DNA from: Bacteroidaceae bacterium | GTDB lineage: Bacteria; Bacillota; Clostridia; Lachnospirales; Lachnospiraceae | Assembly: GCA_963626755.1 (NCBI GenBank) | Contig: CAVFXN010000003.1 | Coordinates: 1,482-65,481 of the forward strand | Length of the DNA: 64,000 nt | Direction of reading: 5' to 3' | Shown: piece after piece, positions 3,595-64,000 of the stretch | Position numbering within the stretch: position 1 is the first letter of the stretch | Layout of the letters: each line of letters begins with the position of its first letter | Made by a program: the position numbers and the translations under genes | The notes under the pieces: model-generated | The model's database searches: none | What the model saw: only the letters and a program-made list of their open reading frames with translations | What the model was told of the DNA's origin: nothing

Positions 3595-3778
3595 CTTACA
3601 CCCAAAATGCCGTAGCCTGCAATTTTGAGTCCTAGCCATAGCTAGGTGGGTAACTTCAATTAAACTTCTGACTTCCCCCTTCCAGGGAGGCCTGCCATCC
3701 ACTCAATGATTTAGTTTCCCGAGTTCAAAAATGTAGGTTCAAAATAGCAGGGAGTCTCGAACACCTCAGGTTATTTCT
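3595..3778 (-). ncRNA. ssrS: 6S RNA
   Basis: Minus strand reads CCTGAGGTGTTCG...TTTTGAACC...ACCCACCT...CTCAAAA...ACGGCATTTTGGG. The ends are complementary as in Firmicutes 6S, length is about 185 nt, and it has its own promoter and terminator. Ends are approximate. Confidence 0.8.
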
Positions 3779-3870: not shown

Positions 3871-4461
3871 TTAATCCAGATAAAGTTTCCCGTTTTTTAC
3901 ATGATAATCTCTGTTTTTATGACGTAAAAGCCGGGTTTTCATGTAATGCAGGAAATATTTTTCCCCTTTGTTTTGCAGCATCGTCAGCAGATACCTTGCA
4001 AGATAATCCGACTCTTCATGGATCAACATCATATTTTTTCCGTTGACATAATATTCCAGCGGGCATCCATCGTGATAGTTTTCTTTCAGATAGTTTTTGC
4101 TGGCACTCATCCGGTCGATCACCATCTCAGCCACATACTTTTTCGGCATCTTCATGCCTACCAGCTTGCCACTACCGGAATCGCAGCCGGGATCGCAGCT
4201 ATAGTCCATCCAGTATTCAAAATGATGGGGATTCCTTCCTTTGTGATGGAGCCATCCCCGTGAACACTGCTTCAGCTCTTTTTCCCGGTTGATCGGGCTC
4301 CGGTCTCCCTGGTAGTAAATGATGCCCGGAATAAACTCGATCGGGCTGTATTTTGACAGGTCATGTAAAAGTCCCTGTTTGTAAAGTCCTACCTGAAAAC
4401 AGGTTTTCATTACCAGCATCTTATGATAGGTTATCGTTTTTAAATGTCCCATGAAATCCAT
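3871..4461 (-). CDS. DUF5662 family protein (HD-like)
   Basis: HDLSKYSPIEF, WLHHKGRNPHHFEYW and EMVIDR motifs. Confidence 0.75.
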   Translation of the reverse strand: MDFMGHLKTITYHKMLVMKTCFQVGLYKQGLLHDLSKYSPIEFIPGIIYYQGDRSPINREKELKQCSRGWLHHKGRNPHHFEYWMDYSCDPGCDSGSGKLVGMKMPKKYVAEMVIDRMSASKNYLKENYHDGCPLEYYVNGKNMMLIHEESDYLARYLLTMLQNKGEKYFLHYMKTRLLRHKNRDYHVKNGKLYLD

Positions 4462-4494: not shown

Positions 4495-5469
4495 TCATTC
4501 TCTCCCATTATCTTCTTCTTTTTCCTGAAAATTAACCGTACTCCGGATGAGATATTCCGGTCGGTTTCTGACTTCCGAAAGAATCACTGCCAGGTATTCC
4601 CCGATAATTCCCAGAAGGAAAAAAAGAATGGTAAACATAAAACAGATCACTACAATGGTTGTTGTGTAGCCCCCAGGTGCGCCGGTATGTATTTTCGTAT
4701 AAATACTGTAAATGATCAGCAAGATACAGACAATCCCTGCCCCGCTGCCGCAATACGATGCGATCTTCAGGGGCATATTGGAATAGCTGAGTACTGCCTG
4801 TACGGAAAAATGCATCAGGAGACGTAAATTATATTTACTTTTTCCCGCGGCCCGCCTGTTGGCTTCGTATTCAATTTCTGTCTTGCGAAATCCGATATTT
4901 TGAATGTATGCCCGCATAAAACGGTGGGTCTCCCGGAAATGTTTCCGAAGAACCTCGGCCGGTTTTCGGGACACAGCAAAAAAATCAGAAGCATTTTCAT
5001 CAAAATGGATTTCCGAAACACCGTTTAAAATTTTATAAAATAATTTTGAAGTGACATTTTTCATCCATCCGGCATCCTGATTGGACGTACGGATCATTGT
5101 GATGACTTCGTATCCGTCACATAACGCCTGAACGATCTGCGGGATACATTCCACCGGATGCTGAAGATCCGCATCCATACAGATGATTCCATCCCCACTG
5201 CTGTAGTCCACCCCGGCGAGCATGGCGGCTTCATGTCCGTAATTACGGGAAAAATGAATGACCTTCACCTGTTTTGACTCCATGGCCAGCCGCTCTAAAA
5301 TGCCGGCGGACGCATCACGGCTCCCATCATTCACGAACAAAAGCTCATACTCACATCCCAGTGTCTCCAGCACCGGGCGAATGGCCCGGTAAAATTGGTC
5401 CAGTACGGCTTCCTCATTGTAGACAGAGACTACAATCGATATTTTTCTTATTCTTCCCATCGGCTCCAT
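4495..5469 (-). CDS. GT2 polyprenyl-phosphate glycosyltransferase (GtrB/CsbB-like)
   Basis: SIVVSVYNEE, VNDGSRD, FSRNYGHEAAMLAG and MDADLQHP motifs; two C-terminal TM helices. Confidence 0.9.
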   Translation of the reverse strand: MEPMGRIRKISIVVSVYNEEAVLDQFYRAIRPVLETLGCEYELLFVNDGSRDASAGILERLAMESKQVKVIHFSRNYGHEAAMLAGVDYSSGDGIICMDADLQHPVECIPQIVQALCDGYEVITMIRTSNQDAGWMKNVTSKLFYKILNGVSEIHFDENASDFFAVSRKPAEVLRKHFRETHRFMRAYIQNIGFRKTEIEYEANRRAAGKSKYNLRLLMHFSVQAVLSYSNMPLKIASYCGSGAGIVCILLIIYSIYTKIHTGAPGGYTTTIVVICFMFTILFFLLGIIGEYLAVILSEVRNRPEYLIRSTVNFQEKEEDNGRE

Positions 5470-5499: not shown

Positions 5500-8400
5500 C
5501 TATTTGTTTGAAACGAGATAATCTACCACTCTCTGAGAAGATTTCCCATCACAGTATGTCAGATATTTTTTCCGGAATGCTTCTTCTTTGGAGAAATCAT
5601 ACCGGTCTATTCTCCCAAGTTCTTTTGCGAGCCCTTCTTCACTGTCTATGACAGGCCCTACGAGAACATCCTCGATCGGACAGATGGTTTTTCGGTCTTT
5701 CAGATAGGTATCGGCATCATAGCTCGTCATAAATACCGGTTTTTTCGCAATCGTGGCCTCGAAAAAGGTATCCCGGTAATCGCCGACCACAATATCGGCC
5801 GCACAGACTGCCTCCCTCAAAAACAGATCCGGGGTAATATTTTGGGCAAAACCTTTGATCGTCAGAGGCTGGACTACTTCCAGATCCATCATCGGAATAT
5901 GACTGATCACGGCATAACCGTCTCCCAACAGCTCTTTCAACCGGTTGAGATTCAGGAATTCCTTATAATTGGTCTGTTTCGTCCGGTAGCGAACGGACGG
6001 AATATATAAAATAACCGTTCTTCCCTTTGCCTCCGGGAAAGCTTTCCAGAGTTTTTCCCGGCAGCTCTGTACAAGCGTTGGGTTAAAATAGATATCTGTC
6101 TGACAATTTCCCCTGATCCGGAAAGAATTTTCCCTCTTAATATCGTACCGTTCTGCCAGTGCAGAAATCAGGTAATCCGAACTGATCTGTACCTGGGAAA
6201 TGTCTACCCGGTTGGTCGCCTGCTCATATTCTTTTTGTTTCTTGGACATACGCGGAGTGTCGTGTTTCCCATAAATATACGGAAAAGCAGATTCGCCCAG
6301 AACAATGATCTGGGTCTCCTCCCGAAGCTTTAACATCGAAAGATAGATGAGTGGTTTCAAGGATAAAATAAACCGGGCAGAGGCAATTTCTGCCAGCAGA
6401 TGCTCATGATCTTCCGATTCTCCCACTCCAATCTGTCTGACCTGGAAATCTTTTTGCTGTTCCAGAATCTGATTTAACATATAAAATCCCGTATAGCTGA
6501 GTTCTTTTTCATCTGCCATCAGGAGGATCTTGTTTTCCACCGGATATTTTTCTGCCAGCTGGTTATATATCTCCTGCTTTTTGATCTGCCCTTTGATATA
6601 TTTCTTCGTTTCTGCAGCATACATTTCATTTTTCTTTATCGTGGAATCCGGAAGCAGGTATCCGGTATTTTGCCGGTCTGACTCCCGAAGCTGATACATC
6701 TTCCGGTATTCTTCCTGTACAGGCTGGAAGGCGCGGGCAACCGAGATTCTCGTACTTCTGGTCAGGTGACCCCGCTGTACTTTTTCCCGCATCTTCTGTA
6801 AGTCCGCTTCGGTAAATGCCGGGGCAAATTCCTGTTTGGCCCCGTAAATGGAAACCGAGTCAATGAGCGGTGCGAGAACATGGACGAACATCTCGTCTTC
6901 CTGATATTCCTGATAGTAGTCTAAAATAAAGTTATAAAGTTCCCGGTCGGTCCGGTCACGGTCTGTCAATTCCAACGATTCATAATCCCCGGCAAACTGT
7001 ACCAGGTATTTTTCCATATCTTCAAATAATTCCTCATCACAGATAATCGGTTCGATGACCGGCTCATATTTCCCGTTGACTTCCTGATAGCCCTCGATGC
7101 TCTTATATGGCATGTTGGCAAAGATTGCTTCAATAAAGATCTGTGAGGAGCTGTTGGTTGTAAAGTTATAGCGGATATTGTCCTCGTTCGATGGCAGGAT
7201 TGTACGTGAATAGTAGAAGTAGGATTTCACGTCTTCCCCGGCGATCGTCTTCCAGATTGACGTAAAGCTTTCCTGCGTATATCCCCTTCCCCAGTATTCT
7301 ACCATGGCAAACTTTTCGTTTGGATCAATTTCCTGTTCCAGGTATCCGCCAACAGGAATCCTTAATTTCTTTGCCTCTTCTAAAAGCACCTCACGGTACG
7401 CCTCCGAATTCTTAATGATTTCGATCAGTTTTTCCCGCTCTTCCAGGCTGATCTCCCCGCTCTGTTTCAAATAAGCTAATTTCGGGAAAAGCTCCATAAA
7501 CTGCTCTTCCGTAATGGACATCGCTTTGAGAAGCTTTTTATAACTGTCCACCCCGGAAAAATTCCCGTAATTTAACCAGAAGCCTTCGTCAATTTCATTG
7601 ACGCAGGACGGAATCCTCCAGGTTCTGCGGGAGGCATAAATATACTTCGTCCTGATCGGAAGGTTTCTTTTTTCGATGATCACATCGGCAATCTTTTTTA
7701 AGAAATGTCCGTCCCGGGAGATAAAATATAAGGTCTCATATCCCCGCTGCACGGCATCCCTGAGCACCCAGCTGATATAAGGGACAAAGCATAATGACAC
7801 GTAATTATAGGTGAATTTTTCCTTGGCAAAGATATGTTTTGCACGGAATCTCGCCATCAGGGCTGCGACCAGATATGAATCGTATGTGCCCAGCTTGGAA
7901 ACCAGCATGTTCTCATATTCGTTAAATTCCGGTTTCGCAACCTGCCTTGCCACGATCCCCAGCCTTCTCGGCATAGTAACATCCGGCAGCCTGGTGTCCC
8001 CAAAATGGATCCATTTCCCGAAATCGTAAAATGGATGAAAGCTTTTATAGACTTCCATAAAGAGCTTTTTCGTTGTTTTCTGCACACCGTATTCCGAGGA
8101 CAAAAACAGCGGAAGCTTCGCAAGGGCCGGATCTGCCTTTTCCAGCATAGCTGTAACCACTTCTGTCGGGAGATACATGTCGCTGATCAGGACCACGGTC
8201 TCGTTCCGGGCGATAAGGTCTTTGACCTTCTGGATATTTTCTTCCAGCGGAATCGAATTATCCAATTCTTCCTGCTTCTCCGTTTCCATCAAAAACGAAG
8301 CCTGTTCGTCCGTCAGCCCATAAATCCACTGCAGCTTATCAAAAATATCTTTCATGTAGATTTCGCGGCGTTCGGAATGACGGGTCTCCATCGTTTTATG

Positions 8401-9855
8401 GTAATATTCACGGACATCCTTTTCCGCATGCATCCGTATTTCCGGATAATGCTCCACAAAGTGTTCCGGGTAATCCTGGCCTTCCTCCCGCATCCTCTCC
8501 TGGATCCGGTAAAAAATCCCTTCCGGTGCCAGGACTTTCCGGGAAATCAGGGTATCAAAGATATCGAAACTGTAAAGCGTCGGGAACGTCCGGTCTTGCG
8601 GGACAAATTCCAGTGTCTGGCGGATGATCTTTTCAAAGGAATCTTTTCCGGAATGTTTCCAGTAAAGGTCATTGATCCGCTGAATCCCTTCGAGATCATC
8701 TCTTTCCCGGTAGGTTTCCATGGCATCTAACAGTTCTTCAAAGCAGTAACAGAGCTTTCCTGTGGTGACTTTCATATAATCGTGGTTCAGGCCGGTCACC
8801 GCTTCCTCATAATCAAAGACATAGCGGATATAATGCGGCACGCCCGCACTGACAAAATCTGTAAAAATAGAAGAGTAGTCAATGACGGCCAGATCAATTT
8901 TATCAATGATTTCATAAAAATCATCTTTGTTATCCCAGAACCAGACATAAGGGTTCTTTTTATATTTTTCTTTCATCTTCAGGTAGGCATATTCATTTTC
9001 CATGACCGGATGCATCTTAAAGATGAAGAGTAATTTTTTCTTCTTACATACTTCGATCAGCCGATCCATGTCCGGAATCGCCAGATGGAAGGTGTCTTCC
9101 GTAAGACCCTGTCGGTAAGTCGGTGCATACACCGCAAGCTTATATTCTGCATCCAGCCCTTTCTGAGCGAGCAGATCGTGCGGAAAGGTGACAATTGGCT
9201 CAAAATATTTCTGATAAATATTCCTCGGATATCCGGCACATACGACTTTATCCTCATCCACGCCACACATCCGTTTAAAATCCTCTTCCATCATCGGGGA
9301 TGGACACAAAAACAGCTGGTTGTTTCTGTAAAACTGATTGTGCAGAATATATTTATGCGCCAGATTTTCCGCCATTCCTCCGGTGACCAGAACACGCTCC
9401 ACATCTTTGGCCCCGACACCGTGATATAAGTTTAAATATTTCACATGGTGCATCCCATCCGGGATCGCGATCTTTACCTGTTCCGCAACAAGCACCCCGG
9501 TCTTTTCTGCCGCAAGATTCGCTTCTAAGGTCCCCACCGTATAAGCACAGTATCCCAGACTCCGGACAAACGCTGTCGTCTTCTCACTTCCGCTGAGCCA
9601 GTAGGCCGTGATATCTTTTCGATATTTATTGACGTAAATAAACAAGTATTTCGGATTCCCCCGGAAATCATTCCCGGACTGCCCGGCGTTAAAAGCCCAC
9701 ACATAATTTTTATCTGTCTGCGTGATCTCACTGGCTACCTTCTGAATTTCTTTATGTGCTTCCTGGTCCAGAAAACCCTTTTTTGCGAGAAAAGAGCCAA
9801 AATACTTTTTTATTGCTTTTTTTGGTAATTGTTTGAATCGTTCTATTTTTCTCAT
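5500..9855 (-). CDS. Multidomain glycopolymer polymerase, Bcs3-like: TagF-like polyol-phosphate transferase, HAD phosphatase, ribofuranosyl (phosphoribosyl) transferase and a degenerate TagF/TagB-like C-terminal domain
   Basis: TagF motifs GNPKY, YHGVG, GYPRN, YAPTYR, KMHP, DYSS. HAD motifs FDIFDT (aa 430-435), SDMYL, HFGD. Ribofuranosyltransferase-like motifs FISRDG (aa 711) and VEYWGRGYTQ (aa 852). C-terminal ILYIPSVR...CDGKSSQRV. Confidence 0.85.
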   Translation of the reverse strand: MRKIERFKQLPKKAIKKYFGSFLAKKGFLDQEAHKEIQKVASEITQTDKNYVWAFNAGQSGNDFRGNPKYLFIYVNKYRKDITAYWLSGSEKTTAFVRSLGYCAYTVGTLEANLAAEKTGVLVAEQVKIAIPDGMHHVKYLNLYHGVGAKDVERVLVTGGMAENLAHKYILHNQFYRNNQLFLCPSPMMEEDFKRMCGVDEDKVVCAGYPRNIYQKYFEPIVTFPHDLLAQKGLDAEYKLAVYAPTYRQGLTEDTFHLAIPDMDRLIEVCKKKKLLFIFKMHPVMENEYAYLKMKEKYKKNPYVWFWDNKDDFYEIIDKIDLAVIDYSSIFTDFVSAGVPHYIRYVFDYEEAVTGLNHDYMKVTTGKLCYCFEELLDAMETYRERDDLEGIQRINDLYWKHSGKDSFEKIIRQTLEFVPQDRTFPTLYSFDIFDTLISRKVLAPEGIFYRIQERMREEGQDYPEHFVEHYPEIRMHAEKDVREYYHKTMETRHSERREIYMKDIFDKLQWIYGLTDEQASFLMETEKQEELDNSIPLEENIQKVKDLIARNETVVLISDMYLPTEVVTAMLEKADPALAKLPLFLSSEYGVQKTTKKLFMEVYKSFHPFYDFGKWIHFGDTRLPDVTMPRRLGIVARQVAKPEFNEYENMLVSKLGTYDSYLVAALMARFRAKHIFAKEKFTYNYVSLCFVPYISWVLRDAVQRGYETLYFISRDGHFLKKIADVIIEKRNLPIRTKYIYASRRTWRIPSCVNEIDEGFWLNYGNFSGVDSYKKLLKAMSITEEQFMELFPKLAYLKQSGEISLEEREKLIEIIKNSEAYREVLLEEAKKLRIPVGGYLEQEIDPNEKFAMVEYWGRGYTQESFTSIWKTIAGEDVKSYFYYSRTILPSNEDNIRYNFTTNSSSQIFIEAIFANMPYKSIEGYQEVNGKYEPVIEPIICDEELFEDMEKYLVQFAGDYESLELTDRDRTDRELYNFILDYYQEYQEDEMFVHVLAPLIDSVSIYGAKQEFAPAFTEADLQKMREKVQRGHLTRSTRISVARAFQPVQEEYRKMYQLRESDRQNTGYLLPDSTIKKNEMYAAETKKYIKGQIKKQEIYNQLAEKYPVENKILLMADEKELSYTGFYMLNQILEQQKDFQVRQIGVGESEDHEHLLAEIASARFILSLKPLIYLSMLKLREETQIIVLGESAFPYIYGKHDTPRMSKKQKEYEQATNRVDISQVQISSDYLISALAERYDIKRENSFRIRGNCQTDIYFNPTLVQSCREKLWKAFPEAKGRTVILYIPSVRYRTKQTNYKEFLNLNRLKELLGDGYAVISHIPMMDLEVVQPLTIKGFAQNITPDLFLREAVCAADIVVGDYRDTFFEATIAKKPVFMTSYDADTYLKDRKTICPIEDVLVGPVIDSEEGLAKELGRIDRYDFSKEEAFRKKYLTYCDGKSSQRVVDYLVSNK

Positions 9856-9934: not shown

Positions 9935-9963
9935 ATTATACCTTGATATTCCCAAGGAATCAA
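9935..9963 (-). promoter_or_regulatory. Sigma-A promoter of the polymerase gene with a palindromic spacer
   Basis: TTGATT-N17-TATAAT on the minus strand; the spacer is CCTTG-N7-CAAGG. Confidence 0.7.
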
Positions 9964-10096: not shown

Positions 10097-10127
10097 GGAT
10101 GCTGTGGTTTTCACAGTGTCTTTTTTT
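10097..10127 (+). terminator. Riboswitch-controlled terminator
   Basis: GGATGCTGTG/CACAGTGTCT stem followed by a T run. ACAGCAT (10071-10077) can pair with ATGCTGT as an antiterminator. Confidence 0.75.
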
Positions 10128-10200: not shown

Positions 10201-10629
10201 ATGTATATTTTACAAACAGAGCAATCTTTTGATGCCGCTCATTTTTTAAGTGGATATCAGGGTAAATGCAGCAATATTCACGGACACCGCTGGAGGGTGG
10301 TCGCGCGAATTGCCCGGGAAGCATTAAATAAAGAGGGACAGGCGCGGGACATGGTCCTTGATTTTAGCGATTTCAAACAGGCACTGTCTCAGCTTACGGA
10401 TGCGCTGGACCATACCTTTATTTTTGAAGACGGATCCCTGCGCCCATCCACATTAGAAGCACTGAAACAGGAGGGGTTTGCCTTCCATGTGGTTCCCTTC
10501 CGCCCGACTGCAGAGCAGTTTTCCCGGTATTTTTACGAAGCATTAAAGGAACTTTCCTTCCCGGTGTATGATGTTTCCGTCTATGAAACCCCGACAAACT
10601 GTGCGACCTACCAGGAGGCCTCCTTATGA
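10201..10629 (+). CDS. queD: 6-carboxytetrahydropterin synthase
   Basis: FDAAHFL, KCSNIHGHRW, LDH, PTAE and YETP motifs. Confidence 0.95.
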   Translation: MYILQTEQSFDAAHFLSGYQGKCSNIHGHRWRVVARIAREALNKEGQARDMVLDFSDFKQALSQLTDALDHTFIFEDGSLRPSTLEALKQEGFAFHVVPFRPTAEQFSRYFYEALKELSFPVYDVSVYETPTNCATYQEASL

Positions 10630-17886: not shown

Positions 17887-19113
17887 TTATTTTTTAAGGG
17901 TAATCTTTATTTTTGCTATGGAATCTACCGTAATATGATCTGGATCTTTCACATGTACACTCACTTCATGTTCACCGGCTCCCAATCCCTGGATATCGAT
18001 CCACGGCGCAAAGTCTTTGACTTCTAATTCCTTTATCACAGAATCCGTTCCTTCGATGCCTATGGTGTATTGATTACTTTTACTGAACTTCACCTTATAA
18101 TGGTTCTTATTATTCTTTACTTTGATATCCGTTTTGGAGAAAGTAAATTGGTGGGAAGATATTTTTTCTATCGTCGCCTTAACCTTGACATCCCGGACTT
18201 CATCATCTGCCAAAATCACCTGGTCCGGAAGGGCTGCCTTGGTGAGATCAATGTCTTTTTCATAATCCTTTTTTCTCCCATCCAGATCCACACTGCCAAG
18301 GGAAACCGAATCCAGTTCATCTAAGACGTCATCCGGTGCTGCAACCACAATCTGCTTCGGTTCATAATCAAAAGAGCTGAGATCATAGCCCGATGCCGGC
18401 TTTCCGGTATAGTCCATCTTGACATCCACCGTCTTCGTCTTCCAAAGCTCCACATAAATTCCTATGGATGATGTGTCAAAATCAATCTGGCTGCTGGTAA
18501 CCTTTTTGCCATTCTCATCATAAAGCTCCGGTTTATCCGTCGATGTGATGTCCTGAGAGATTCCACTGACATCCACCTGTGCCCGGATTTCTTTTACGGT
18601 AGAAAGCAGGGTTTCCGGTCCGCTTACTTTTAAAAGATTCGGTGTACCGATTGCCCGTCCCACTGCATAGCCATCCGCCACCTGCCCTTTTGTGATGATA
18701 TTGACCGGCACACTGATACTGACAACCGTATCCTTTTTGATCTTCATCGTGTTCGTATTCCCCAGCGTGATATCCAGCTGATCGGAATATTTTTTACAGG
18801 TAACATCGATGGGAACTGCATTGACCACCGACAGTTTCGAGAAATCCGCAACCGCCCGGAAATCGGAAATATTCAGGCTACGGACAATACTGTTCTTTCC
18901 TTTTACTGTGATACTCACTTCTTCTCCATCTAAAATTTCATAAGCATATCCCTCCTTGGTCAATGCTTTGGCATTGACGACTTTTACCGGGATATTGCTG
19001 AACCTTTTCGTAACGACCGGGTCATTGACATTCGCCACCAGGAACCAGATCAATATCGCTATGACAACGGAAAGGATTTTCATCCACATCTTGTTATTTC
19101 TCTGCTTTTTCAT
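17887..19113 (-). CDS. cdaR: CdaR/YbbR-domain regulator of diadenylate cyclase
   Basis: N-terminal TM (KILSVVIAILIWFLV) then beta-rich YbbR-like repeats; overlaps the end of cdaA. Start moved to ATG 19113. Confidence 0.85.
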   Translation of the reverse strand: MKKQRNNKMWMKILSVVIAILIWFLVANVNDPVVTKRFSNIPVKVVNAKALTKEGYAYEILDGEEVSITVKGKNSIVRSLNISDFRAVADFSKLSVVNAVPIDVTCKKYSDQLDITLGNTNTMKIKKDTVVSISVPVNIITKGQVADGYAVGRAIGTPNLLKVSGPETLLSTVKEIRAQVDVSGISQDITSTDKPELYDENGKKVTSSQIDFDTSSIGIYVELWKTKTVDVKMDYTGKPASGYDLSSFDYEPKQIVVAAPDDVLDELDSVSLGSVDLDGRKKDYEKDIDLTKAALPDQVILADDEVRDVKVKATIEKISSHQFTFSKTDIKVKNNKNHYKVKFSKSNQYTIGIEGTDSVIKELEVKDFAPWIDIQGLGAGEHEVSVHVKDPDHITVDSIAKIKITLKK

Positions 19114-19990
19114 TCCGCAACAAACCTTTCCATTTTTTGAAAACATCTACATTGTTGGACTCACCAGCTTTCAGCTCCTGGATCTTATCCAGAAGTTCCT
19201 TCTTTTCCAGATCCCGGTAGAGTCGGCCGTCTTTGGCAAGGGATACCGCTCCGGTTTCCTCAGAAACGATAATGGTCAGGCTGTCGGAAACTTCACTGAT
19301 TCCTACCGCTGCCCTGTGTCTGGTTCCAAGCTCCTTGCCAATATCCAGACTGTCTGTCAGGGGGAGATAACAGGTCGCTGAAATAATACGTCCTCCCCGT
19401 ATAATCACCGCCCCATCATGAAGCGGTGTATTATGCTCAAATATATTCACTAAAAGCTGGCTGGATACGATCCCGTCGATCGTGATCCCTGTCCTTACGT
19501 ATTCTCCCAGTGCTACCGTCTGTTCAATGACCATAAGGGCTCCTGTCTTTACTGCACCCATTTCATATGCTGCCCGGACAATCTCGTTAACGATCCGGTC
19601 TGTCAGAAAAAAATCTTTTTCTTCATATTCCCCAAAAGATAACAGGTTACTGAAAATCTTCTTTCTTCCCAGCTGCTCCAGGGCTCTTCTTAATTCCGGC
19701 TGAAAAATAATGATAGCGGCAGTGATGCCGACTCCCAGGGAATTCGAAAGAAGCCAGGATATGGTATTCAACTGAAGAATCGAAGCCACAAGGGCAAACA
19801 ACAACAGGATGATGATCCCTTTAAACAGTGTCCATGCCCTGGTAAGCTGCACCCATTTTAAAACCTGATATACGATCACGCTGATAATGATAATCTCCAG
19901 GACATCAGAAAAGCCGATGGATGGCAAAGACATCCAATATAAATGTTTCTCTATGATTTTTTGAAATTGCCCCACACTCATTAACTGCAT
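19094..19990 (-). CDS. cdaA: Diadenylate cyclase
   Basis: Three TM helices, FQPELRRALE, PLHDGA and GTRHRAA motifs. Confidence 0.95.
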   Translation of the reverse strand: MQLMSVGQFQKIIEKHLYWMSLPSIGFSDVLEIIIISVIVYQVLKWVQLTRAWTLFKGIIILLLFALVASILQLNTISWLLSNSLGVGITAAIIIFQPELRRALEQLGRKKIFSNLLSFGEYEEKDFFLTDRIVNEIVRAAYEMGAVKTGALMVIEQTVALGEYVRTGITIDGIVSSQLLVNIFEHNTPLHDGAVIIRGGRIISATCYLPLTDSLDIGKELGTRHRAAVGISEVSDSLTIIVSEETGAVSLAKDGRLYRDLEKKELLDKIQELKAGESNNVDVFKKWKGLLRNEKAEK

Positions 19991-26401: not shown

Positions 26402-28345
26402 TTAATGGGTGACATAATTTGCAATCAGATTATAATCCAGTACTTCTTTACAGGTATCCAGCAGAGTCTGCGCCCTGTCGCTTCCTTTCTGACAGAGCTT
26501 TTTGTTCAGATTTTTCGTGCTTCCATCCAACAGGGAAACCATTCTTCCGTTTTTGACCGTCCCGTCTTTTCCGATGACGAACAAAAAATTATCCTCCCCA
26601 CTCAGGAACGATCCCTTCCCCACATAAGAGATCTGTGACACAAATCCCTCGTTCGTATTGAGCAGATCATGCCCGAAAACATAGGGCTGTCCCGGATCCA
26701 GGTTCATCAGGTTGGCGATCGTCGGCATGATATCAACCTGCCCGCCAACGACATCTACGGTTTTGCTTTCATTGAGCCCTGGTATATGAATCAGGAACGG
26801 CACATGGAGCATTTCATCGTAATCGTACTCTCTCCCAAGGAATTCCGACATCTTCCATTCTACCGAAGCGGTTTCTTTGTTCATTCCCTGATGGTCCCCA
26901 TAGATGGCGATCACCGTATTATCATACATTCCGTTTTCTTTTAAATATTCGATCAGTTTTCCGAAAGCCTCGTCCGTATAACGCACTGTCTGGAGATAAT
27001 TTCCAAACGTCGTCCCCTCATCTTCCTCTTTTAATTTCAGCGTTGCCAGGGAGGAATCCAATTCATAGGGGATATGGTTGGTCAATGTGATCATAAAGCT
27101 AAAAAATGGCTGTTGTTTCTCTTTTAAAATATCCACTGCCTGGCGGAACAGTTCCTTGTCCGTCAGTCCAAAGCCGGATACCTCCGTCACGTCCAGTTCC
27201 TCTTCCGAATAGTAATGCTCAAATCCCTGGTTTTTATACGCTTCGCTCCGGTTCCAGAATGTTTTTACATATCCGTGGAACGCCAGTGAGCTGTATTCTT
27301 TCTCCCGGAACATCCACGGCAGGCCATTGTAGGTATTATCCACATACATTCGGTAACATTCCCTCTCGTCATTGGGATATAAACTGTTTAGTGCAGAAAA
27401 CTCCGCATCACTGGTATTCCCCACGCCGGTATTTGAATAGAAACGGCTGAAATAAAAGGTGTCCTTCTTCAGGAGTTTGTTTAAGTTTGGCGTGATCTCC
27501 TGCCCGTTATAGGTTGCTCCGATAACAAAATTATTGAGAGATTCTGTCTGGATCAGGATCAGGTTTTTCCCTTCGGCCACCCCTTTATACTCTGTCCCGG
27601 AAGATTTCGGTACATTTTCTTTCATTTTCTTTCGGATCTTAGCTTCGTCTGCCTTCCCTCTTTTTAACTTGCCCACTACATTGACAAGGATGTCGTTCGT
27701 ATGGTAAGTAAAATATTCAATATGGTTGACCTGCTGTACAGAACGGTAATTCTGAGGGTTCATTCCGTAATAATACCAGCTGCAGACGGTGCCAATATAT
27801 AAGGCGATATGAAAAAGAATCACCAGCAGCGATTTGCGAAACGAACGGCTCCTCCACACTGTCCCGGCTTTCTTTTTCGTCGAAATTGCAGCAGCAAACG
27901 GCCGAATCATCCCTTTTTTCCCCTGGTTTCTGAGACGGTACCAGTAGATCACAAAGGGATAATCCAGCAGTGTGACCAAACAGAGCGGACTAACTGCCGC
28001 ACCGATCACATTTCCGTCCCCGGCAATCTGACCGAGGCTGGCAAGCTGATACAGTTGGTTCACCGAGGTATATTTCCCGAAATAACTGCTGTATGCTGCA
28101 TCGGCGAGCATGATCAGGGTCAGGAGTGTGTATACAATATAAAATCCATAACGGCGCGCCTTGCTTTCTTTAAAAGAAAACACCTCAAATATACTTACAA
28201 AAAATAAAACAGTCAGAATCGGTGCCTCATAGATTTTCATCATATCAAGCATGTCTGTCTGCCAGTAAAAAAGTATTGTTTTAATGAGAAACATAGGGTA
28301 TACCAGCCAGTAATGCCCTATGATTTTTTTCATGTTCTTTTTCAT
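26402..28345 (-). CDS. ltaS: LTA synthase family protein
   Basis: N-terminal TMs, then a sulfatase-like domain with QTESL, GNTSDAEF (catalytic Thr), NHIPY and YGDH. Confidence 0.85.
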   Translation of the reverse strand: MKKNMKKIIGHYWLVYPMFLIKTILFYWQTDMLDMMKIYEAPILTVLFFVSIFEVFSFKESKARRYGFYIVYTLLTLIMLADAAYSSYFGKYTSVNQLYQLASLGQIAGDGNVIGAAVSPLCLVTLLDYPFVIYWYRLRNQGKKGMIRPFAAAISTKKKAGTVWRSRSFRKSLLVILFHIALYIGTVCSWYYYGMNPQNYRSVQQVNHIEYFTYHTNDILVNVVGKLKRGKADEAKIRKKMKENVPKSSGTEYKGVAEGKNLILIQTESLNNFVIGATYNGQEITPNLNKLLKKDTFYFSRFYSNTGVGNTSDAEFSALNSLYPNDERECYRMYVDNTYNGLPWMFREKEYSSLAFHGYVKTFWNRSEAYKNQGFEHYYSEEELDVTEVSGFGLTDKELFRQAVDILKEKQQPFFSFMITLTNHIPYELDSSLATLKLKEEDEGTTFGNYLQTVRYTDEAFGKLIEYLKENGMYDNTVIAIYGDHQGMNKETASVEWKMSEFLGREYDYDEMLHVPFLIHIPGLNESKTVDVVGGQVDIMPTIANLMNLDPGQPYVFGHDLLNTNEGFVSQISYVGKGSFLSGEDNFLFVIGKDGTVKNGRMVSLLDGSTKNLNKKLCQKGSDRAQTLLDTCKEVLDYNLIANYVTH

Positions 28346-60052: not shown

Positions 60053-63000
60053 TTACCTATTCTTTTGGCTCTCTTTCTTTCTTCCCCTTTGGAATCGATA
60101 GAATGCAATGACTGCCAAGGCAGTCAACACGACTCCTGTCCCGCAAAAAAGCGGTTCTGCGTAATACATCTGTACGACTTTATTTGTTGTTACCAGACAT
60201 TTGCGGCTGTCTCCTGTTTCATCGGAACTCATCTGATTTCCGGCTTTATCCCTGACAATATAACGAATTTTTTGGTAATGGTTCTTTTCAAAAAGGATCC
60301 GGGTTACCGTATGGTTTTCTCCAAACTCTTCCGGACGAATCTTCACTTTTTCTGTTTTTCTTTCGTTTCCCTGTCCTATTTGAAGTTCGAAAAAATCCAG
60401 GGCATAATTATCAAAAACAGTAATCGTAAAAGGATGCTCCTTTTCTTCATAAAAGATTTCCTCCAAATTTCCGATGCTTACGGACGGAGGTGTCTTATCT
60501 ACAATAAAACGTATTGATTTTTTTCTTATTTCATTATCCGTACTTTTCACCTGCTCCTGCTTTCCTTTTTTTCCGATATGCGCATCGGACTGGATTAACA
60601 GATGGTACTCTCCTTCTTTTTGAAAATTTTCCTTCCTGATGCAGATTGTTTTTTCCCACCAGCCATACCGCTCATTTTTTTTGTCTGTATTTCTTTTTTG
60701 GGTGACAGTATAAATCCTGGAATCTCCTTTTCCATCCTTCTCTGTAATCTCTGTCCTTTCCTCATGGTCTCTCATCAAAATCACTTTTGTCCTGACAGGA
60801 TTGACACACCACTCTTTTAATATAATGTCTTCTTCCTGTTTTAAATATTTTTTCTGTAATATGTCAACCAGGGTTCGATCCAGTTCGTAATCTGCGCCAA
60901 AACGATTGACCTGAAATCTGATTTTCTGGGTTATTTTATTCCCGGCGAGGTCTTCCCCCTTGATGTCCAGCAGATAGATCCCGTCTGTTTTTTCTTTATG
61001 TGTAAAATCACTCCATAGATACTCTATGTGATTCTTGCCATTTTTAATGGTAAATGGATATTCTTTTTCCCCGGTCCGCTTCCCGTCTGCCTTCCTTAAC
61101 ACAGCCTTTACACAAGATCCGGCCAGATTTTCATCTGTGCAGATTACCTGTGGGCATACTTTTCCTGTATAAGTATCCCCCTTCTCCACTCCGGAAACTT
61201 TGATCTTCGGCAAAGTGGTATCTATGATAAATTCCTCCAGCTCTTTTTGCCCGGAAGAATTTCCTGCCGCATCTGTACACTGTACACCAATCCGGTATCT
61301 TCCATTTCGCTTCAGCACCAGCTGACTGTAATGACAGATTCCTTCCCTGGTATAATCTTCCGGTTCTTTTTCCTTTCTTTTTTCTTTCCCTTTTTCCTTT
61401 CCACTGATCCTTTGTATTTTATAAATGATTTTACAATTTTCAAAATTTTTCTCTTTAATACAGAAGGACACTGTCCTGGCACTCCGATAATATCTGTCAT
61501 TTTTCCTGCCCTTTCTGTCCATATCTATCGAGACTTCCGGCGGAGTCCTGTCAATGGTAAATGTCTTCGGATCCTCCCATGCAGCTTTATTCCCGGCATA
61601 ATCAGAAAGAGTCAATCCGATTCCATAATCTTCCCCGTCTTCTCTAAAATATATATTACAGCGGTGGATATTCCCTTGACCCTTCCACTTTCCAATTTCG
61701 TACTTTGTATTGGATCCTCTGATTTTCCAATTGACAGATGCCGGGTTAAAATTCCAGTCTTTTACCGTGATGGTTGCGGTTCTTTCTCTGTTATAAAAAG
61801 AATTTTTTTCCCTTTGCCCGTCATATGTCACTTGGATTTCCGGACTGGTATGATCGAGTACTATTTTATAATTCTGGTCCGTAACATAGCTCTGGTTTCC
61901 GGCATTGTCTTCGAAAGATCCCGTAAGTTTCACGGGATTCTCCCGGCATGATGTGCAGAATTTTTCCGGATTCAGTAGCAGACTCTGCCCTTTTTCATAA
62001 GTGAGATCTTTTTCCTTTTCCCATGTTTTTTCTTTCGACTCCTTCTTTCCCTTACTATCCCTCCCATAAAATATGGTCTTATATATACCGGAATAGCTGT
62101 CAGTAAAAATTGCCCTGGCTTTTACTTTTTCTCTATAATATTTCACTTTATTTTTCTGGTCTGTATATACTGCCTTCGGAAGTCTGAACTGTATCCCACT
62201 TGTTTTTTTGTGAAGTTCTTTTGACTCGGATATCATTCCTTTCGATAACAGCTCTCCGCTTTCATTTCCGCTGAAATCCCTGGCTTTCACTTTGAAATAC
62301 CCTTTGAAATTATCCTGCCCGGCATCGATTTCTGTAAGAAATACCGAGAGATCCTGCCCTGCTTTTTGGGGATTACTTTTTTTGATGCTGCTATCTTTTC
62401 TGAGCGTTCCCTCTGTTTTCCATGGCAAGACGGAATAGAGGATCTGATCTGCCCCACTGATTTTGTCATGGGCGGTAATTGCTATTTTCATGCTGCCGCG
62501 GCTAAAATAAGAAAACGATGCATACGGCCTGAAAATCACGCCCTTATCATTCTCCTGTACTTTATAAGAAATTTCCGGTTTTTCCCTGTCGTATGTAATC
62601 TCTATTTTTTCTCCTTTGCCCTGATTGCCCGCTTTATCACCAAATTCCACGGACAGTTCATGGTTCGTCTGTTCTTCGATTGGAATTTCCGTCTCATTGA
62701 TGCGGATTCCCTTTTCATAATAGGTCTTCCATTGGAGTTGCTTCTTCCATTTTGATATCGCATCTTTCTCCTTTTGCTCTTCTTTGTTCCCATCCGCACC
62801 AGTCATAGCATCCCTTATCACACAATCTTTTTTATTAAAGTTTTCTTCCGCTATTTTTAACAAGATCGTTGGCTGCTCCTGAAAATATTGCCGGCTTCCT
62901 TTCTTTTGAACCGGAGCCTTCTTTGGCGAAAACAGCTGCAAAACCGGTTTGGTCCGATCCACAGTGCATAAGGGACTTTGATATTGATTTCCACGAAAAC

Positions 63001-64000
63001 AGGCGGACATTTCCCTGGCTTCCTCTGGAAGGAGGCTATTTCCGGCCGTATCGGTATAACTCACTGTAAAATAATAATGGCCTTCCAGCAAATTCGTAAT
63101 TTCTGCATAATAGCAAGCTCCTTTTTTCTCCCAGACTATATCCCACCGCACTGTCTGTTCTTCTTTCTCCAAAAGATCTCCTGCAGAAGCATACTGCAAA
63201 CGATACATCTCCGCTTTCACATCCTCCGGTCGAAAATAATCCTCTTGTATGCGGAGTGTGATCTTTTCCTGTTCCTTAAAAAAAATTTCATTTTCTGATG
63301 ATGTGATCTGTTTTTGCCCATCTGAAATCTCACGGTTGACATTCCATGGACTGCTTGTGATCTCTGCAATCTCTTTTTGCCCCTCATACTTCACCTGGAG
63401 TCTTGGTGATTCGTGGTCAATGATACATTCCCCGCTTTCCACTGTTTCGTCATCTGTCTCCATTGCCACTCCGACATTTCCGGCAATATCGGCACATTGA
63501 AAAATAAATTTCCATTGTCCATTCTCATCAAAAGGAAAGACAAGATGCGATTCCTTCCCTCTTTTGCTGCAAGTCCAATCCGAAACACGGATGTTTCCCT
63601 GCACATCTTTTTTATTACTGTTTTTTACCGACATCCGTGCCCGATCATCACAGGGAACCGCCTTGATGGATACTGTGGTATCATCCAGATATTCCTCTTT
63701 GACTGTTATTCTTCCTTTGATTCCCTTCTGATAATAGACATTTCCGTTTTCCGTCCGTTTTTCACCAGCAGAATCTAAGATGATTTTTTGATCGATCAAA
63801 GGCGATTTTTTATCAATCACAAAGATAACACTGGAAAACTTTCCTTCAGACAGGGTTCCATAACTGTCTTTCATGAAATCAGAGAAGACCGCATCATTAC
63901 CTGAGCCATCTTTATATTTCATATTGATTTTATAATACTTGGCTTCTCCCAGCTCTGCTCTTAACCGTATCCTTTTTTGATGTATGATACTGTCCGCTCC
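60053..64000 (-). CDS. Large membrane-anchored Ig-like repeat surface protein, 5' end outside the window
   Basis: Recurrent DxAGN...IDxTxP beta-rich modules and a C-terminal TM with a basic tail; the frame is open from 64000. Confidence 0.8.
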   Translation of the reverse strand, partial: GADSIIHQKRIRLRAELGEAKYYKINMKYKDGSGNDAVFSDFMKDSYGTLSEGKFSSVIFVIDKKSPLIDQKIILDSAGEKRTENGNVYYQKGIKGRITVKEEYLDDTTVSIKAVPCDDRARMSVKNSNKKDVQGNIRVSDWTCSKRGKESHLVFPFDENGQWKFIFQCADIAGNVGVAMETDDETVESGECIIDHESPRLQVKYEGQKEIAEITSSPWNVNREISDGQKQITSSENEIFFKEQEKITLRIQEDYFRPEDVKAEMYRLQYASAGDLLEKEEQTVRWDIVWEKKGACYYAEITNLLEGHYYFTVSYTDTAGNSLLPEEAREMSACFRGNQYQSPLCTVDRTKPVLQLFSPKKAPVQKKGSRQYFQEQPTILLKIAEENFNKKDCVIRDAMTGADGNKEEQKEKDAISKWKKQLQWKTYYEKGIRINETEIPIEEQTNHELSVEFGDKAGNQGKGEKIEITYDREKPEISYKVQENDKGVIFRPYASFSYFSRGSMKIAITAHDKISGADQILYSVLPWKTEGTLRKDSSIKKSNPQKAGQDLSVFLTEIDAGQDNFKGYFKVKARDFSGNESGELLSKGMISESKELHKKTSGIQFRLPKAVYTDQKNKVKYYREKVKARAIFTDSYSGIYKTIFYGRDSKGKKESKEKTWEKEKDLTYEKGQSLLLNPEKFCTSCRENPVKLTGSFEDNAGNQSYVTDQNYKIVLDHTSPEIQVTYDGQREKNSFYNRERTATITVKDWNFNPASVNWKIRGSNTKYEIGKWKGQGNIHRCNIYFREDGEDYGIGLTLSDYAGNKAAWEDPKTFTIDRTPPEVSIDMDRKGRKNDRYYRSARTVSFCIKEKNFENCKIIYKIQRISGKEKGKEKRKEKEPEDYTREGICHYSQLVLKRNGRYRIGVQCTDAAGNSSGQKELEEFIIDTTLPKIKVSGVEKGDTYTGKVCPQVICTDENLAGSCVKAVLRKADGKRTGEKEYPFTIKNGKNHIEYLWSDFTHKEKTDGIYLLDIKGEDLAGNKITQKIRFQVNRFGADYELDRTLVDILQKKYLKQEEDIILKEWCVNPVRTKVILMRDHEERTEITEKDGKGDSRIYTVTQKRNTDKKNERYGWWEKTICIRKENFQKEGEYHLLIQSDAHIGKKGKQEQVKSTDNEIRKKSIRFIVDKTPPSVSIGNLEEIFYEEKEHPFTITVFDNYALDFFELQIGQGNERKTEKVKIRPEEFGENHTVTRILFEKNHYQKIRYIVRDKAGNQMSSDETGDSRKCLVTTNKVVQMYYAEPLFCGTGVVLTALAVIAFYRFQRGRKKESQKNR

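Follow-up and report, generated by a model that had tools for sequence, protein, structure and literature searches.

The capsule polymerase Bcs3 of Haemophilus influenzae type b (Hib; PDB entries 8a0c and 8a0m) carries on one chain the TagF-like ribitol-phosphate transferase CroT (residues 1-373), the HAD phosphatase CrpP (374-591) and the ribofuranosyltransferase CriT (592-1036), which depends on phosphoribosyl pyrophosphate (PRPP), followed by an SH3b domain (1037-1115) and a C-terminal bundle of amphipathic helices (PMC10299916). Homologs of the whole length of Bcs3 have already been reported in Gram-positive bacteria, where the C-terminal amphipathic bundle is missing, and were left for 'future studies' by the Bcs3 authors (PMC10299916). 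The accessible text of this paper names the SH3b domain in Lactococcus, Enterococcus, Weissella and Mammaliicoccus, and homologs devoid of it in Staphylococcus epidermidis as well as in Clostridium botulinum; the latter are likewise counted as Bcs3 homologs and might, in the words of its authors, use 'another binding module'. Here, we describe a gene of this kind, which is located on the minus strand of a 64,000-nucleotide stretch of contig CAVFXN010000003.1 (hereafter the window) and encodes a protein of 1451 amino acids (aa; label P0001). Because whole-length homologs from Gram-positive bacteria are in print (PMC10299916), the protein does not represent a new class. By every sequence feature examined except the SH3b domain the enzyme belongs to the Bcs3 family, and it is probably a cytoplasmic multi-enzyme that polymerises a ribofuranosyl-ribitol-phosphate chain from PRPP and cytidine diphosphate (CDP)-ribitol.

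Pairs of a PRPP-dependent ribofuranosyltransferase and a HAD phosphatase that serve O-antigen and capsule synthesis follow the same two-step logic, in which ribose-5-phosphate is taken from PRPP and then dephosphorylated, but they lack a fused polyol-phosphate transferase. Such pairs are reportedly the subject of papers on Campylobacter and Klebsiella. The ribofuranosyltransferase of Thermobacillus composti is set apart by description, as its structure differs considerably according to the Bcs3 authors (PMC10299916). The C-terminal module of the protein shares the glycosyltransferase B (GT-B) fold of TagF from S. epidermidis (3l7i-m) and TarL from S. aureus (8va1), the latter with a long helix in front of the fold, as in our module (accessible text of PMC10901376). 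Likewise, Cps3D/Cps7D of Actinobacillus pleuropneumoniae (8qoy) fuse a TagF-like phosphotransferase to other catalytic and non-catalytic modules, namely a galactosyltransferase and tetratricopeptide repeats (TPR), and these extra modules control priming and chain length; unlike the present protein, they comprise no PRPP-dependent ribosyltransferase, phosphatase or dead TagF copy as far as the accessible text of PMC11666461 describes them.

The resemblance to Bcs3 itself lies in the succession of CroT, CrpP and CriT on one chain and in the named residues, including the glycine that marks ribitol enzymes. In contrast to Bcs3, the protein is devoid of SH3b and the C-terminal amphipathic bundle, and it comprises a TagF/TarL fold of ~390 aa without the catalytic histidines as well as a basic N-terminal extension of 49 aa. 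Moreover, the host is of the Gram-positive type, the gene does not lie in a group 2 capsule (kps-type) context, and the tarI/tarJ-like genes are separate rather than neighbouring as bcs1. The SH3b-less Gram-positive homologs of PMC10299916 are similar in being Bcs3-type enzymes without SH3b; however, a second TagF-like domain is not described for them in the accessible text, although the alignment in Supplementary Data 1 may show one. In the open-access literature searched we found neither an architecture of four domains that includes a TagF-fold module without the histidines, nor the recurrence of this module beside active TagF domains, nor the abundance of such enzymes in gut commensal Clostridia and their assignment to ribitol; some of these features may be shown in Supplementary Data 1 of PMC10299916. 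Among the matches listed there was no paper on a ribitol/ribofuranose teichoic-type polymer in Lachnospiraceae, Anaerobutyricum or E. hallii, and none on a degenerate or non-catalytic TagF-like domain.

Conservation of the three Bcs3 active sites

A phmmer search of the PDB sequences returned Bcs3 (8a0c_A) with 644 bits (E = 4e-192) along a single collinear stretch, which joins residues 63-1059 of the query to residues 13-1025 of the chain; the Bcs3 entries 8a0m and 9h50 were matched as well. The order TagF-like, HAD, CriT is common to both proteins and collinear over all three domains. For the comparison of active sites, the catalytic and substrate-binding residues of Bcs3 were used as named in PMC10299916. 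The numbering of the PDB chain exceeds that of native Bcs3 by three, which was confirmed at 16 named positions of the phmmer alignment, and conservation was read from a MAFFT alignment of 121 family members (the query and the 120 best listed of at least 350 proteins at E <= 0.001).

All 16 named residues are kept in the protein and are identical in 108-121 of the 121 family members, the proposed catalytic residues even in 120-121. Within the CroT-like domain, the histidine pair H145 and H282 as well as K150 (Bcs3 H96, H233 and K101) are invariant (each 121/121), and G148 (G99) is present in 119/121. The HAD nucleophile D431 and the motif III lysine K593 of the CrpP-like domain (Bcs3 D386 and K548) are found in each of the 121 sequences. 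The same holds for D715 of the acidic pair of the CriT-like domain and for its proposed base E909 (Bcs3 D680 and E874), while the second acidic residue E853 (E818) is identical in 120/121. Among the residues of CriT that bind the phosphates of PRPP, R714, R743 and S742 (Bcs3 R679, R708 and S707) are invariant, followed by R747 (R712; 117/121), S713 (S678; 112/121), S919 (S884; 111/121) and T860 (T825; 108/121).

The gene had been singled out by a sequence-only reading, which proposed that Bcs3 has the same motifs in the same order, placed the enzyme in the CroT-CrpP-CriT class and predicted a ribofuranose-polyol-phosphate polymer. The computed alignment bears out this order and covers residues ~650-1050, for which an alignment with CriT had been named as the check; the class and the predicted polymer are supported by the alignment, the kept catalytic residues and the context of CDP-ribitol genes described below. 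As that reading stated, 5500..9855 is a single open reading frame (ORF) of 1451 aa plus stop with an ATG start, and its translation contains all of the motifs that had been listed, namely GNPKY (66-70), YHGVG (144-148), GYPRN (208-212), YAPTYR (243-248), KMHP (280-283) and DYSS (326-329) in the CroT region, FDIFDT (430-435), SDMYLP (558-563) and HFGD (617-620) in the HAD domain, and YFISRDGHFLK (710-720), KYIYASR (737-743) and VEYWGRGYTQ (852-861) in the third domain. The nucleotide ranges given for three of them are exact (8551-8568, aa 430-435; 7708-7725, aa 711-716; 7273-7302, aa 852-861). Its expectation that a default annotation would read 'CDP-glycerol glycerophosphotransferase' agrees with the database names of the homologs, which are either 'CDP-glycerol glycerophosphotransferase family protein' or 'hypothetical protein'. 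The only Pfam family found in the protein is PF04464 (two stretches, E = 1.8e-62), and the NCBIfam matches to TarL, TarF and TarB are all sub-threshold. The three domains described at that time were confirmed; however, a fourth, the histidine-less TagF-fold domain (~aa 1060-1451), had been overlooked.

We propose that the CriT-like domain (aa ~639-1059) would transfer ribofuranose-5-phosphate from PRPP onto the terminal ribitol of the chain, and that the CrpP-like HAD domain (aa ~419-638) would then take off the 5-phosphate, with CDP-ribitol being supplied by a tarI/tarJ-like pair on contig C22. Synthesis of the chain would probably take place on a lipid-linked primer at the membrane's inner face; a TagG/TagH-like ABC transporter (contig C36) would then export the product, and one of three LCP-type ligases would attach it to peptidoglycan, which would result in a complex polymer resembling wall teichoic acid; an adjacent PgfS/ArnC-like glycosyltransferase of family 2 (GT2) may decorate it. 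The C-terminal module (aa ~1060-1451) would hold polymer, primer or nucleotide, and the basic amphipathic N-terminal extension would provide contact to the membrane.

A C-terminal TagF fold without the catalytic histidines

The alignment with Bcs3 stops at aa 1059, and ~390 further residues follow. This region matches S. aureus TarL (8va1) in the phmmer search with E = 1e-15 over query residues 1158-1449, and TagF was matched as well; the second of the two PF04464 stretches also falls into this module. An AlphaFold2 model of aa 1030-1451, built with 40 homologous segments, reached a mean predicted local distance difference test score (pLDDT) of 91.2 and a predicted template modelling score (pTM) of 0.88, and displays short helices and a helix of 34 residues (aa 1070-1103), after which comes a Rossmann architecture with two lobes. 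When this model was submitted to Foldseek, TagF ranked first (3l7j; E 4.3e-19, TM score 0.66) and TarL next (TM 0.67-0.69), with ~410 aligned columns; the Cps3D/Cps7D-type structure 8qoy was matched with E 1.8e-12, and CroT of Bcs3 appeared much lower (E 5e-8).

The module differs from TagF and TarL by the absence of both catalytic histidines (TarL H300 and H433; TagF H444 and H584), the counterparts of which are present in the N-terminal CroT-like domain. No alignment column in aa 1030-1451 contains more than 39% histidine among the 121 homologs, as compared with 100% for H145 and H282. In the alignment with TarL, two residues are missing from the query precisely at W299-H300. When the two TagF-like domains of the protein were compared by hhalign, KMHP of the N-terminal domain was paired with a non-conserved S-H-I-P and DYSS..D with an invariant DYRD..E, which places Arg-Asp at the Ser-Ser of the motif that binds the nucleotide phosphates of the donor. 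Only the C-terminal Rossmann halves were aligned by this method (aa 178-415 with 1218-1448, probability 91.5%) and the N-terminal halves were left without alignment; the site of the first histidine was therefore placed via the TarL phmmer alignment and the profile alignments. The motifs kept by the module are G1249..T1253-D1254, Y1284-x-P1286-x-x-R1289, G1358-D1359-Y1360-R1361..E1366 and C1435-D1436-G1437, and its invariant acidic residues are D1254, D1354, D1359 and D1436.

The importance of the histidine pair is documented for several relatives. The TarL variants H300N and H433A show negligible activity (accessible text of PMC10901376), the Bcs3 variants H96A and H233A have no or strongly lowered activity (PMC10299916), and the accessible text of PMC11666461 describes the counterparts in CgoT as crucial, with reference to Schertzer et al. 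2005 for the family at large.

A profile of the C-terminal domain, searched against 1.84 billion representative proteins, retrieved 10,240 proteins at E <= 0.001, 637 of them at E <= 1e-30. From the best 150 of the matched proteins and 5 proteins of the family we obtained 164 domain segments. All 35 segments that scored at least 282 bits are without the first histidine, whereas the canonical WHGxGxFK and KxHP motifs are found in 109 segments with 82-271 bits; altogether, the first histidine is absent from 54 segments, and a single one has the first histidine only. The domain therefore forms part of a branch of the TagF fold that is separate and lacks the histidines. In 14 representative proteins of 700-1100 aa (P0127, P0130, P0131, P0133, P0135, P0143-P0145, P0154, P0157-P0159, P0164 and P0165), a canonical TagF-like domain (WHGCGAFK, KHHP) is followed by a histidine-less copy of the fold. 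It thus seems that TagF-type enzymes have the dead copy as a general accessory. Among the Bcs3-like proteins, those of 1830-1880 aa (P0010, P0039 and similar) contain two consecutive histidine-less TagF-fold domains. Sequence change has been more rapid in the C-terminal domain than elsewhere in the protein, with a median identity to 119 homologs of 31% as opposed to 51-54% for each of the three catalytic domains.

We are inclined to regard the C-terminal domain as a non-catalytic accessory, the retained cleft of which would bind phosphate-rich polymer, primer or nucleotide. A few observations weigh against this assignment. One or two positions away from the second catalytic site the protein has a histidine, H1320, and the same is seen in 13 of the 54 segments devoid of the first histidine; since the cleft motifs TD, YxPxxR and DY..E are kept, the domain may still bind a nucleotide and could use a different base. 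Moreover, a membrane helix of the amphipathic TarL type was considered for aa 1070-1103 but is not supported by the hydrophobic moment of this helix, which is 0.28 compared with a protein-wide 95th percentile of 0.43.

As an alternative, the domain might be catalytically active as a fourth enzyme whose base is non-canonical; it would attach a further unit through a phosphodiester bond or prime the chain on a linkage unit, and the product would thus be more complex than ribosyl-ribitol-phosphate. The GT-B fold is complete and its cleft is modelled with confidence, the motifs and invariant aspartates listed above are retained, and the domain itself persists across many genera and is duplicated in the 1830-1880-aa forms. 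However, the whole subfamily is without the two histidines that are essential in TagF, TagB, TarL, CgoT and Bcs3 according to the accessible texts of PMC10901376 and PMC11666461, the Ser-Ser that binds the donor is replaced by Arg-Asp, conservation is far lower than in the three catalytic domains, and three-domain relatives exist that do without this domain. We therefore consider an active fourth enzyme unlikely.

Missing SH3b domain and genes for a possible wall-polymer route

Neither the protein nor any other part of the genome yielded a match to SH3b or DUF5776 (PF19087). The alignment with Bcs3 ends before SH3b, and aa 1030-1106, which follow the CriT-like domain, were modelled as helical and without a beta-barrel. 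The C-terminal module occupies the position of the polymer-binding SH3b domain of Bcs3. A strict replacement of SH3b by this module was weakened by 20 three-domain relatives of the Clostridia type (1015-1062 aa), which have no room for either domain; the likeness is positional only, and the fourth domain is therefore optional.

The N-terminal extension is basic (13 Lys and Arg versus 6 Asp and Glu in aa 1-49) and weakly conserved, with a median identity of 17.5%. The helical hydrophobic moment of the protein peaks in residues 2-19 (0.68; protein-wide 99th percentile 0.52). From these values we infer an amphipathic helix for membrane contact, which would stand in for the missing C-terminal bundle.

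Several genes that fit the synthesis of a wall polymer were found elsewhere in the genome. Contig C24 encodes a TagA/WecG-like protein (PF03808) next to an LCP-like gene, three LCP matches (PF03816) are present in total, and contig C36 carries an ABC-2 permease together with an ATPase with a Wzt_C domain (TagH models 198 and 179 bits, below cut-off). In addition, there are two Bac_transf primases, one of them adjoining an LCP gene. Given these genes, a route similar to that of wall teichoic acid is therefore plausible, and the relatives point in the same direction: the three-domain relative of Enterocloster aldenensis belongs to a cluster of GT2, GT2, ABC-2 permease, ABC ATPase, LicD, tarI and the Bcs3-like gene.

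Against a polymerase that operates in such a route stand the following points. Disruption of SH3b abolishes all activity of Bcs3 (PMC10299916). The three-domain relatives lack both SH3b and the fourth domain, and no gene for the latter was found in the flanks of 19 out of 20. The tarI/tarJ pair, the transporter and the ligases are all unlinked to the Bcs3-like gene in this genome, and the contig ends 6 kb downstream of the gene, after the second gene group described below. A TagO/WecA-type enzyme was not found in the genome, the sole PF00953 gene of which is MraY (TIGR00445, 315 bits), located between a penicillin-binding protein gene and murD; the two Bac_transf genes could prime the chain in its place. 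Finally, donor, acceptor, linkages and polymer length are all inferred.

Some of these points can also be explained by a non-processive enzyme that attaches single or short ribosyl-ribitol-phosphate units as side-chain decoration to another wall polysaccharide. The SH3b domain that Bcs3 requires for activity and tethering is absent, the gene cluster is tiny and devoid of transporter and primase genes, and the main chain could be made by three other TagF-type genes, which are located on contigs C30, C1 and C41. Yet the three active sites are kept exactly as in the Bcs3 polymerase, and each domain makes the acceptor of the next, so that a polymer is the default outcome; we regard mere decoration as quite unlikely and retain the polymerising enzyme.

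With regard to the TagF-type genes, we observed on contig C1 a frame of 678 aa (genome G000, L010:10288-12321, plus strand), in which a TagF-like part (aa 92-394) and a peptidyl-tRNA hydrolase part (aa 479-661) are joined; spoVG lies just before it. This frame may be a real fusion or two genes in one frame, as can arise from simple ORF calling.

Prediction of ribitol as the polyol

The residue three positions after the catalytic histidine is proline in glycerol-phosphate transferases (TagF P447) and glycine in ribitol-phosphate transferases (Bcs3 G99) (PMC10299916). It is glycine in the present protein (HGVG, G148) and in 119 of the 121 homologs, and the genome's three further TagF-type genes likewise read HGxG at this site. 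Contig C22 encodes a D-ribitol-5-phosphate cytidylyltransferase (tarI), which scores 383 bits with NF001183, where the cut-off is 166, and is distinct from a separate and better IspD match elsewhere in the genome that corresponds to the housekeeping enzyme. A gene for a Zn-dehydrogenase of 341 aa adjoins tarI with an overlap of a few bases. This is the usual arrangement of tarI and tarJ, and the gene is termed tarJ-like on account of its position and family. The tagD model TIGR01518 found no match in the genome (97% complete, 58 contigs), and Pfam scans of the ORFs of the window revealed neither tarIJ nor tagD.

The related loci are in line with these data. Among 80 of them, which were drawn from species-representative genomes, tblastn searches at 1e-10 detected a tarI homolog in the 10-kb flanks of at least 40 and a tarJ homolog in at least 19; these counts are lower bounds, because many of the loci are short contigs. 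The top 12 tarI matches are 66-74% identical to TarI of this genome, and in locus L017 tarI and tarJ lie directly upstream of the Bcs3-like gene in the order tarI, tarJ, Bcs3-like.

The sequence-only reading had held that the polyol could not be read from the window and had proposed to search the genome for CDP-ribitol genes or tagD. The window indeed lacks both, but that search, which returned the pair on C22 and no tagD, points to ribitol together with the HGVG site and the related loci, and we thus predict ribitol. A CroT-like domain that uses CDP-glycerol and gives rise to a ribosyl-glycerol-phosphate polymer, as the family's names in Pfam and at NCBI would imply, is highly improbable in view of the glycine in place of proline, the absence of a TIGR01518 match from the genome and the presence of tarI and a tarJ-like gene, homologs of which adjoin the Bcs3-like gene in many related loci.

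Distribution and possible significance

In a word-indexed protein search, in which only the 8000 best candidates were scored, at least 350 proteins matched at E <= 0.001; those listed, 120 in number, share 42-69% identity with the query over 96-100% of its length. With the query included, they fall into length classes of ~1430-1530 aa (108 proteins), 1810-1976 aa (11) and 2454-2462 aa (2); the extra parts of the 1956-1976- and 2454-2462-aa forms gave no Pfam match. Relatives are encoded by 218 stretches of species-representative genomes, of which 80 loci were kept. These are mostly metagenome-assembled genomes of gut and rumen Clostridia (Lachnospiraceae, Acutalibacteraceae, Oscillospiraceae, Ruminococcus, Blautia, Eubacterium) and a few Coriobacteriaceae.

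Cultured carriers comprise Anaerobutyricum hallii DSM 3353, Coprococcus ammoniilyticus, Anaerofustis stercorihominis and Enterocloster aldenensis. The ortholog of A. hallii DSM 3353 (locus L016) is 69% identical and has the same GT2, DUF5662 and BrkB neighbours. The gene of C. ammoniilyticus (L035:9854-15493) encodes two consecutive histidine-less TagF-fold domains, and this Coprococcus form shares 99.7% identity with the representative (P0010) of a 90%-identity cluster of 1774 sequences. Within the genus of the window, a match at E <= 1e-50 was obtained in 4 of 35 other species, at 33-68% identity and partly as fragments, and in the family in 2 of 200 other genomes, one being sampled per genus. 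The architecture is common in gut Clostridia yet patchy, and its patchiness and divergence would fit a variable surface-antigen gene.

As had been supposed beforehand, the host is an anaerobe of the Gram-positive type. Its gene content is that of Firmicutes (SpoVG, DnaB/DnaI, CdaA-YbbR, an LtaS-like gene and the anaerobic cobalamin pathway), and best matches and synteny suggest a position close to Anaerobutyricum. In a genome of the same family, a frame of 795 aa (G089:C8:43375-45183, plus strand) matches CrpP-CriT only (query 426-1021, 32% identity); it corresponds to a split form, like the arrangement of E. coli K18 in PMC10299916.

The gene represents a concrete candidate, in non-pathogenic and cultivable gut anaerobes, for the polymerases of complex wall teichoic acids, and its histidine-less domain may explain how TagF-type polymerases hold primer or product. 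The origin of natural antibodies against polyribosyl-ribitol-phosphate (PRP), the Hib capsule, is an old question, on which a polymer resembling PRP would bear. It is a long shot, in our estimate, that butyrate-producing gut commensals (Anaerobutyricum, Coprococcus and many Clostridia) display a PRP-like poly(ribosyl-ribitol-phosphate) wall polymer, made by the four-domain machine with its dead TagF copy as polymer or primer holder, and are a source of natural anti-Hib antibodies. If this were true, commensals would constitute an unrecognised natural source of cross-reactive anti-PRP antibodies as well as a safe source of enzymes for the synthesis of Hib-type antigen; if the polymer is unlike PRP, the gene still encodes a surface-glycan enzyme that is widespread in the gut microbiota and mis-annotated. 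The cross-reaction with Hib suggested as possible by the sequence-only reading would depend on the positions of the linkages, which sequence does not reveal; the E. coli K18 polymer has the same constituents as that of Hib with different linkages (PMC10299916).

Gene neighbourhood and further features of the window

The coordinates of the gene, its parts and its neighbours are compiled in Table 1.

Table 1. Features of the Bcs3-like locus (positions refer to the window)
Feature	Position	Strand	Basis or remark
Whole ORF, Bcs3-like four-domain enzyme	5500..9855	-	ORF listing, translation, phmmer alignment
N-terminal extension, aa 1-49	9709..9855	-	no Bcs3 counterpart
CroT-like TagF-type polyol-phosphate transferase, ~aa 50-418	8602..9708	-	Pfam PF04464 aa 48-413 and Bcs3 alignment
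CrpP-like HAD phosphatase, ~aa 419-638	7942..8601	-	Bcs3 alignment, residue conservation
CriT-like PRPP-type ribofuranosyltransferase, ~aa 639-1059	6679..7941	-	Bcs3 alignment, residue conservation
C-terminal module, aa 1060-1451: long helix (aa 1070-1103), then TagF/TarL-type GT-B fold	5503..6678	-	AlphaFold2 model, Foldseek
Candidate promoter TTGATT-17-TATAAT, ~80 nt upstream of ATG	9935..9963	-	promoter scan
GT2, polyprenyl-phosphate glycosyltransferase-like	4495..5469	-	PgfS 237 bits, ArnC 164 bits, both below cut-off
DUF5662 protein	3871..4461	-	third gene on same strand
6S (SsrS) RNA gene, full length	3595-3775	-	Rfam RF00013, 86.5 bits (gathering score 46.4)

A GGAG ribosome-binding motif lies immediately 5' of the ATG at 9855. 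The promoter upstream of it is a candidate only, because promoter-like sites are no commoner in the region than in shuffled sequences (17 versus 19.3 expected); terminator-like sites are not in excess either (12 versus 10.4). The GT2 gene begins 30 nt downstream of the Bcs3-like gene on the same strand, and the two genes are likely to be co-transcribed; the GT2 is a candidate for the maker of a lipid-linked sugar that would decorate the polymer outside the membrane. The DUF5662 protein has a counterpart of 79% identity beside the A. hallii ortholog. The 6S RNA gene separates GT2 and DUF5662 from a second group, which consists of a BrkB/DUF218 membrane protein, an acyltransferase-3, a further GT2 and an unassigned ORF of 324 aa. 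It is preceded by a promoter-like sequence (TTGAAA-17-TATAGT, 3813-3785) and followed by a terminator hairpin with an 11-bp stem (3587-3562). This strong hairpin is assigned to the 6S RNA gene.

Upstream of the Bcs3-like gene, the opposite strand carries a queD-queE-folE-queC operon. A terminator-like hairpin (10097-10121, plus strand; 11-bp stem and T run) is located in the leader of queD, which starts at 10201, as expected for a leader controlled by a riboswitch; Rfam returned no family at gathering score in this leader region.

At 17887-19990 (minus strand), CdaA (diadenylate cyclase) and its YbbR-domain partner form their usual tandem, a cyclic di-AMP module typical of Firmicutes. A sulfatase-family protein of 647 aa (26405-28345, minus strand) matches the LtaS model NF053595 with 304 bits, below the cut-off of 970, and the organism may also make lipoteichoic acid. 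A large anaerobic cobalamin/tetrapyrrole cluster extends over ~31500-54300 on the minus strand (hemB, cbiK, cbiD, cbiC, cbiJ, cobT, cobS, cobD, cobQ, cbiA, hemA and a hemC/D-methylase fusion), with cbiG on the plus strand. Finally, the low-GC end of the window (GC ~0.40) encodes on the minus strand (60056-63922) a protein of 1289 aa with the bacterial Ig-like domains Big_13 and Big_3_2, which is probably a surface protein.

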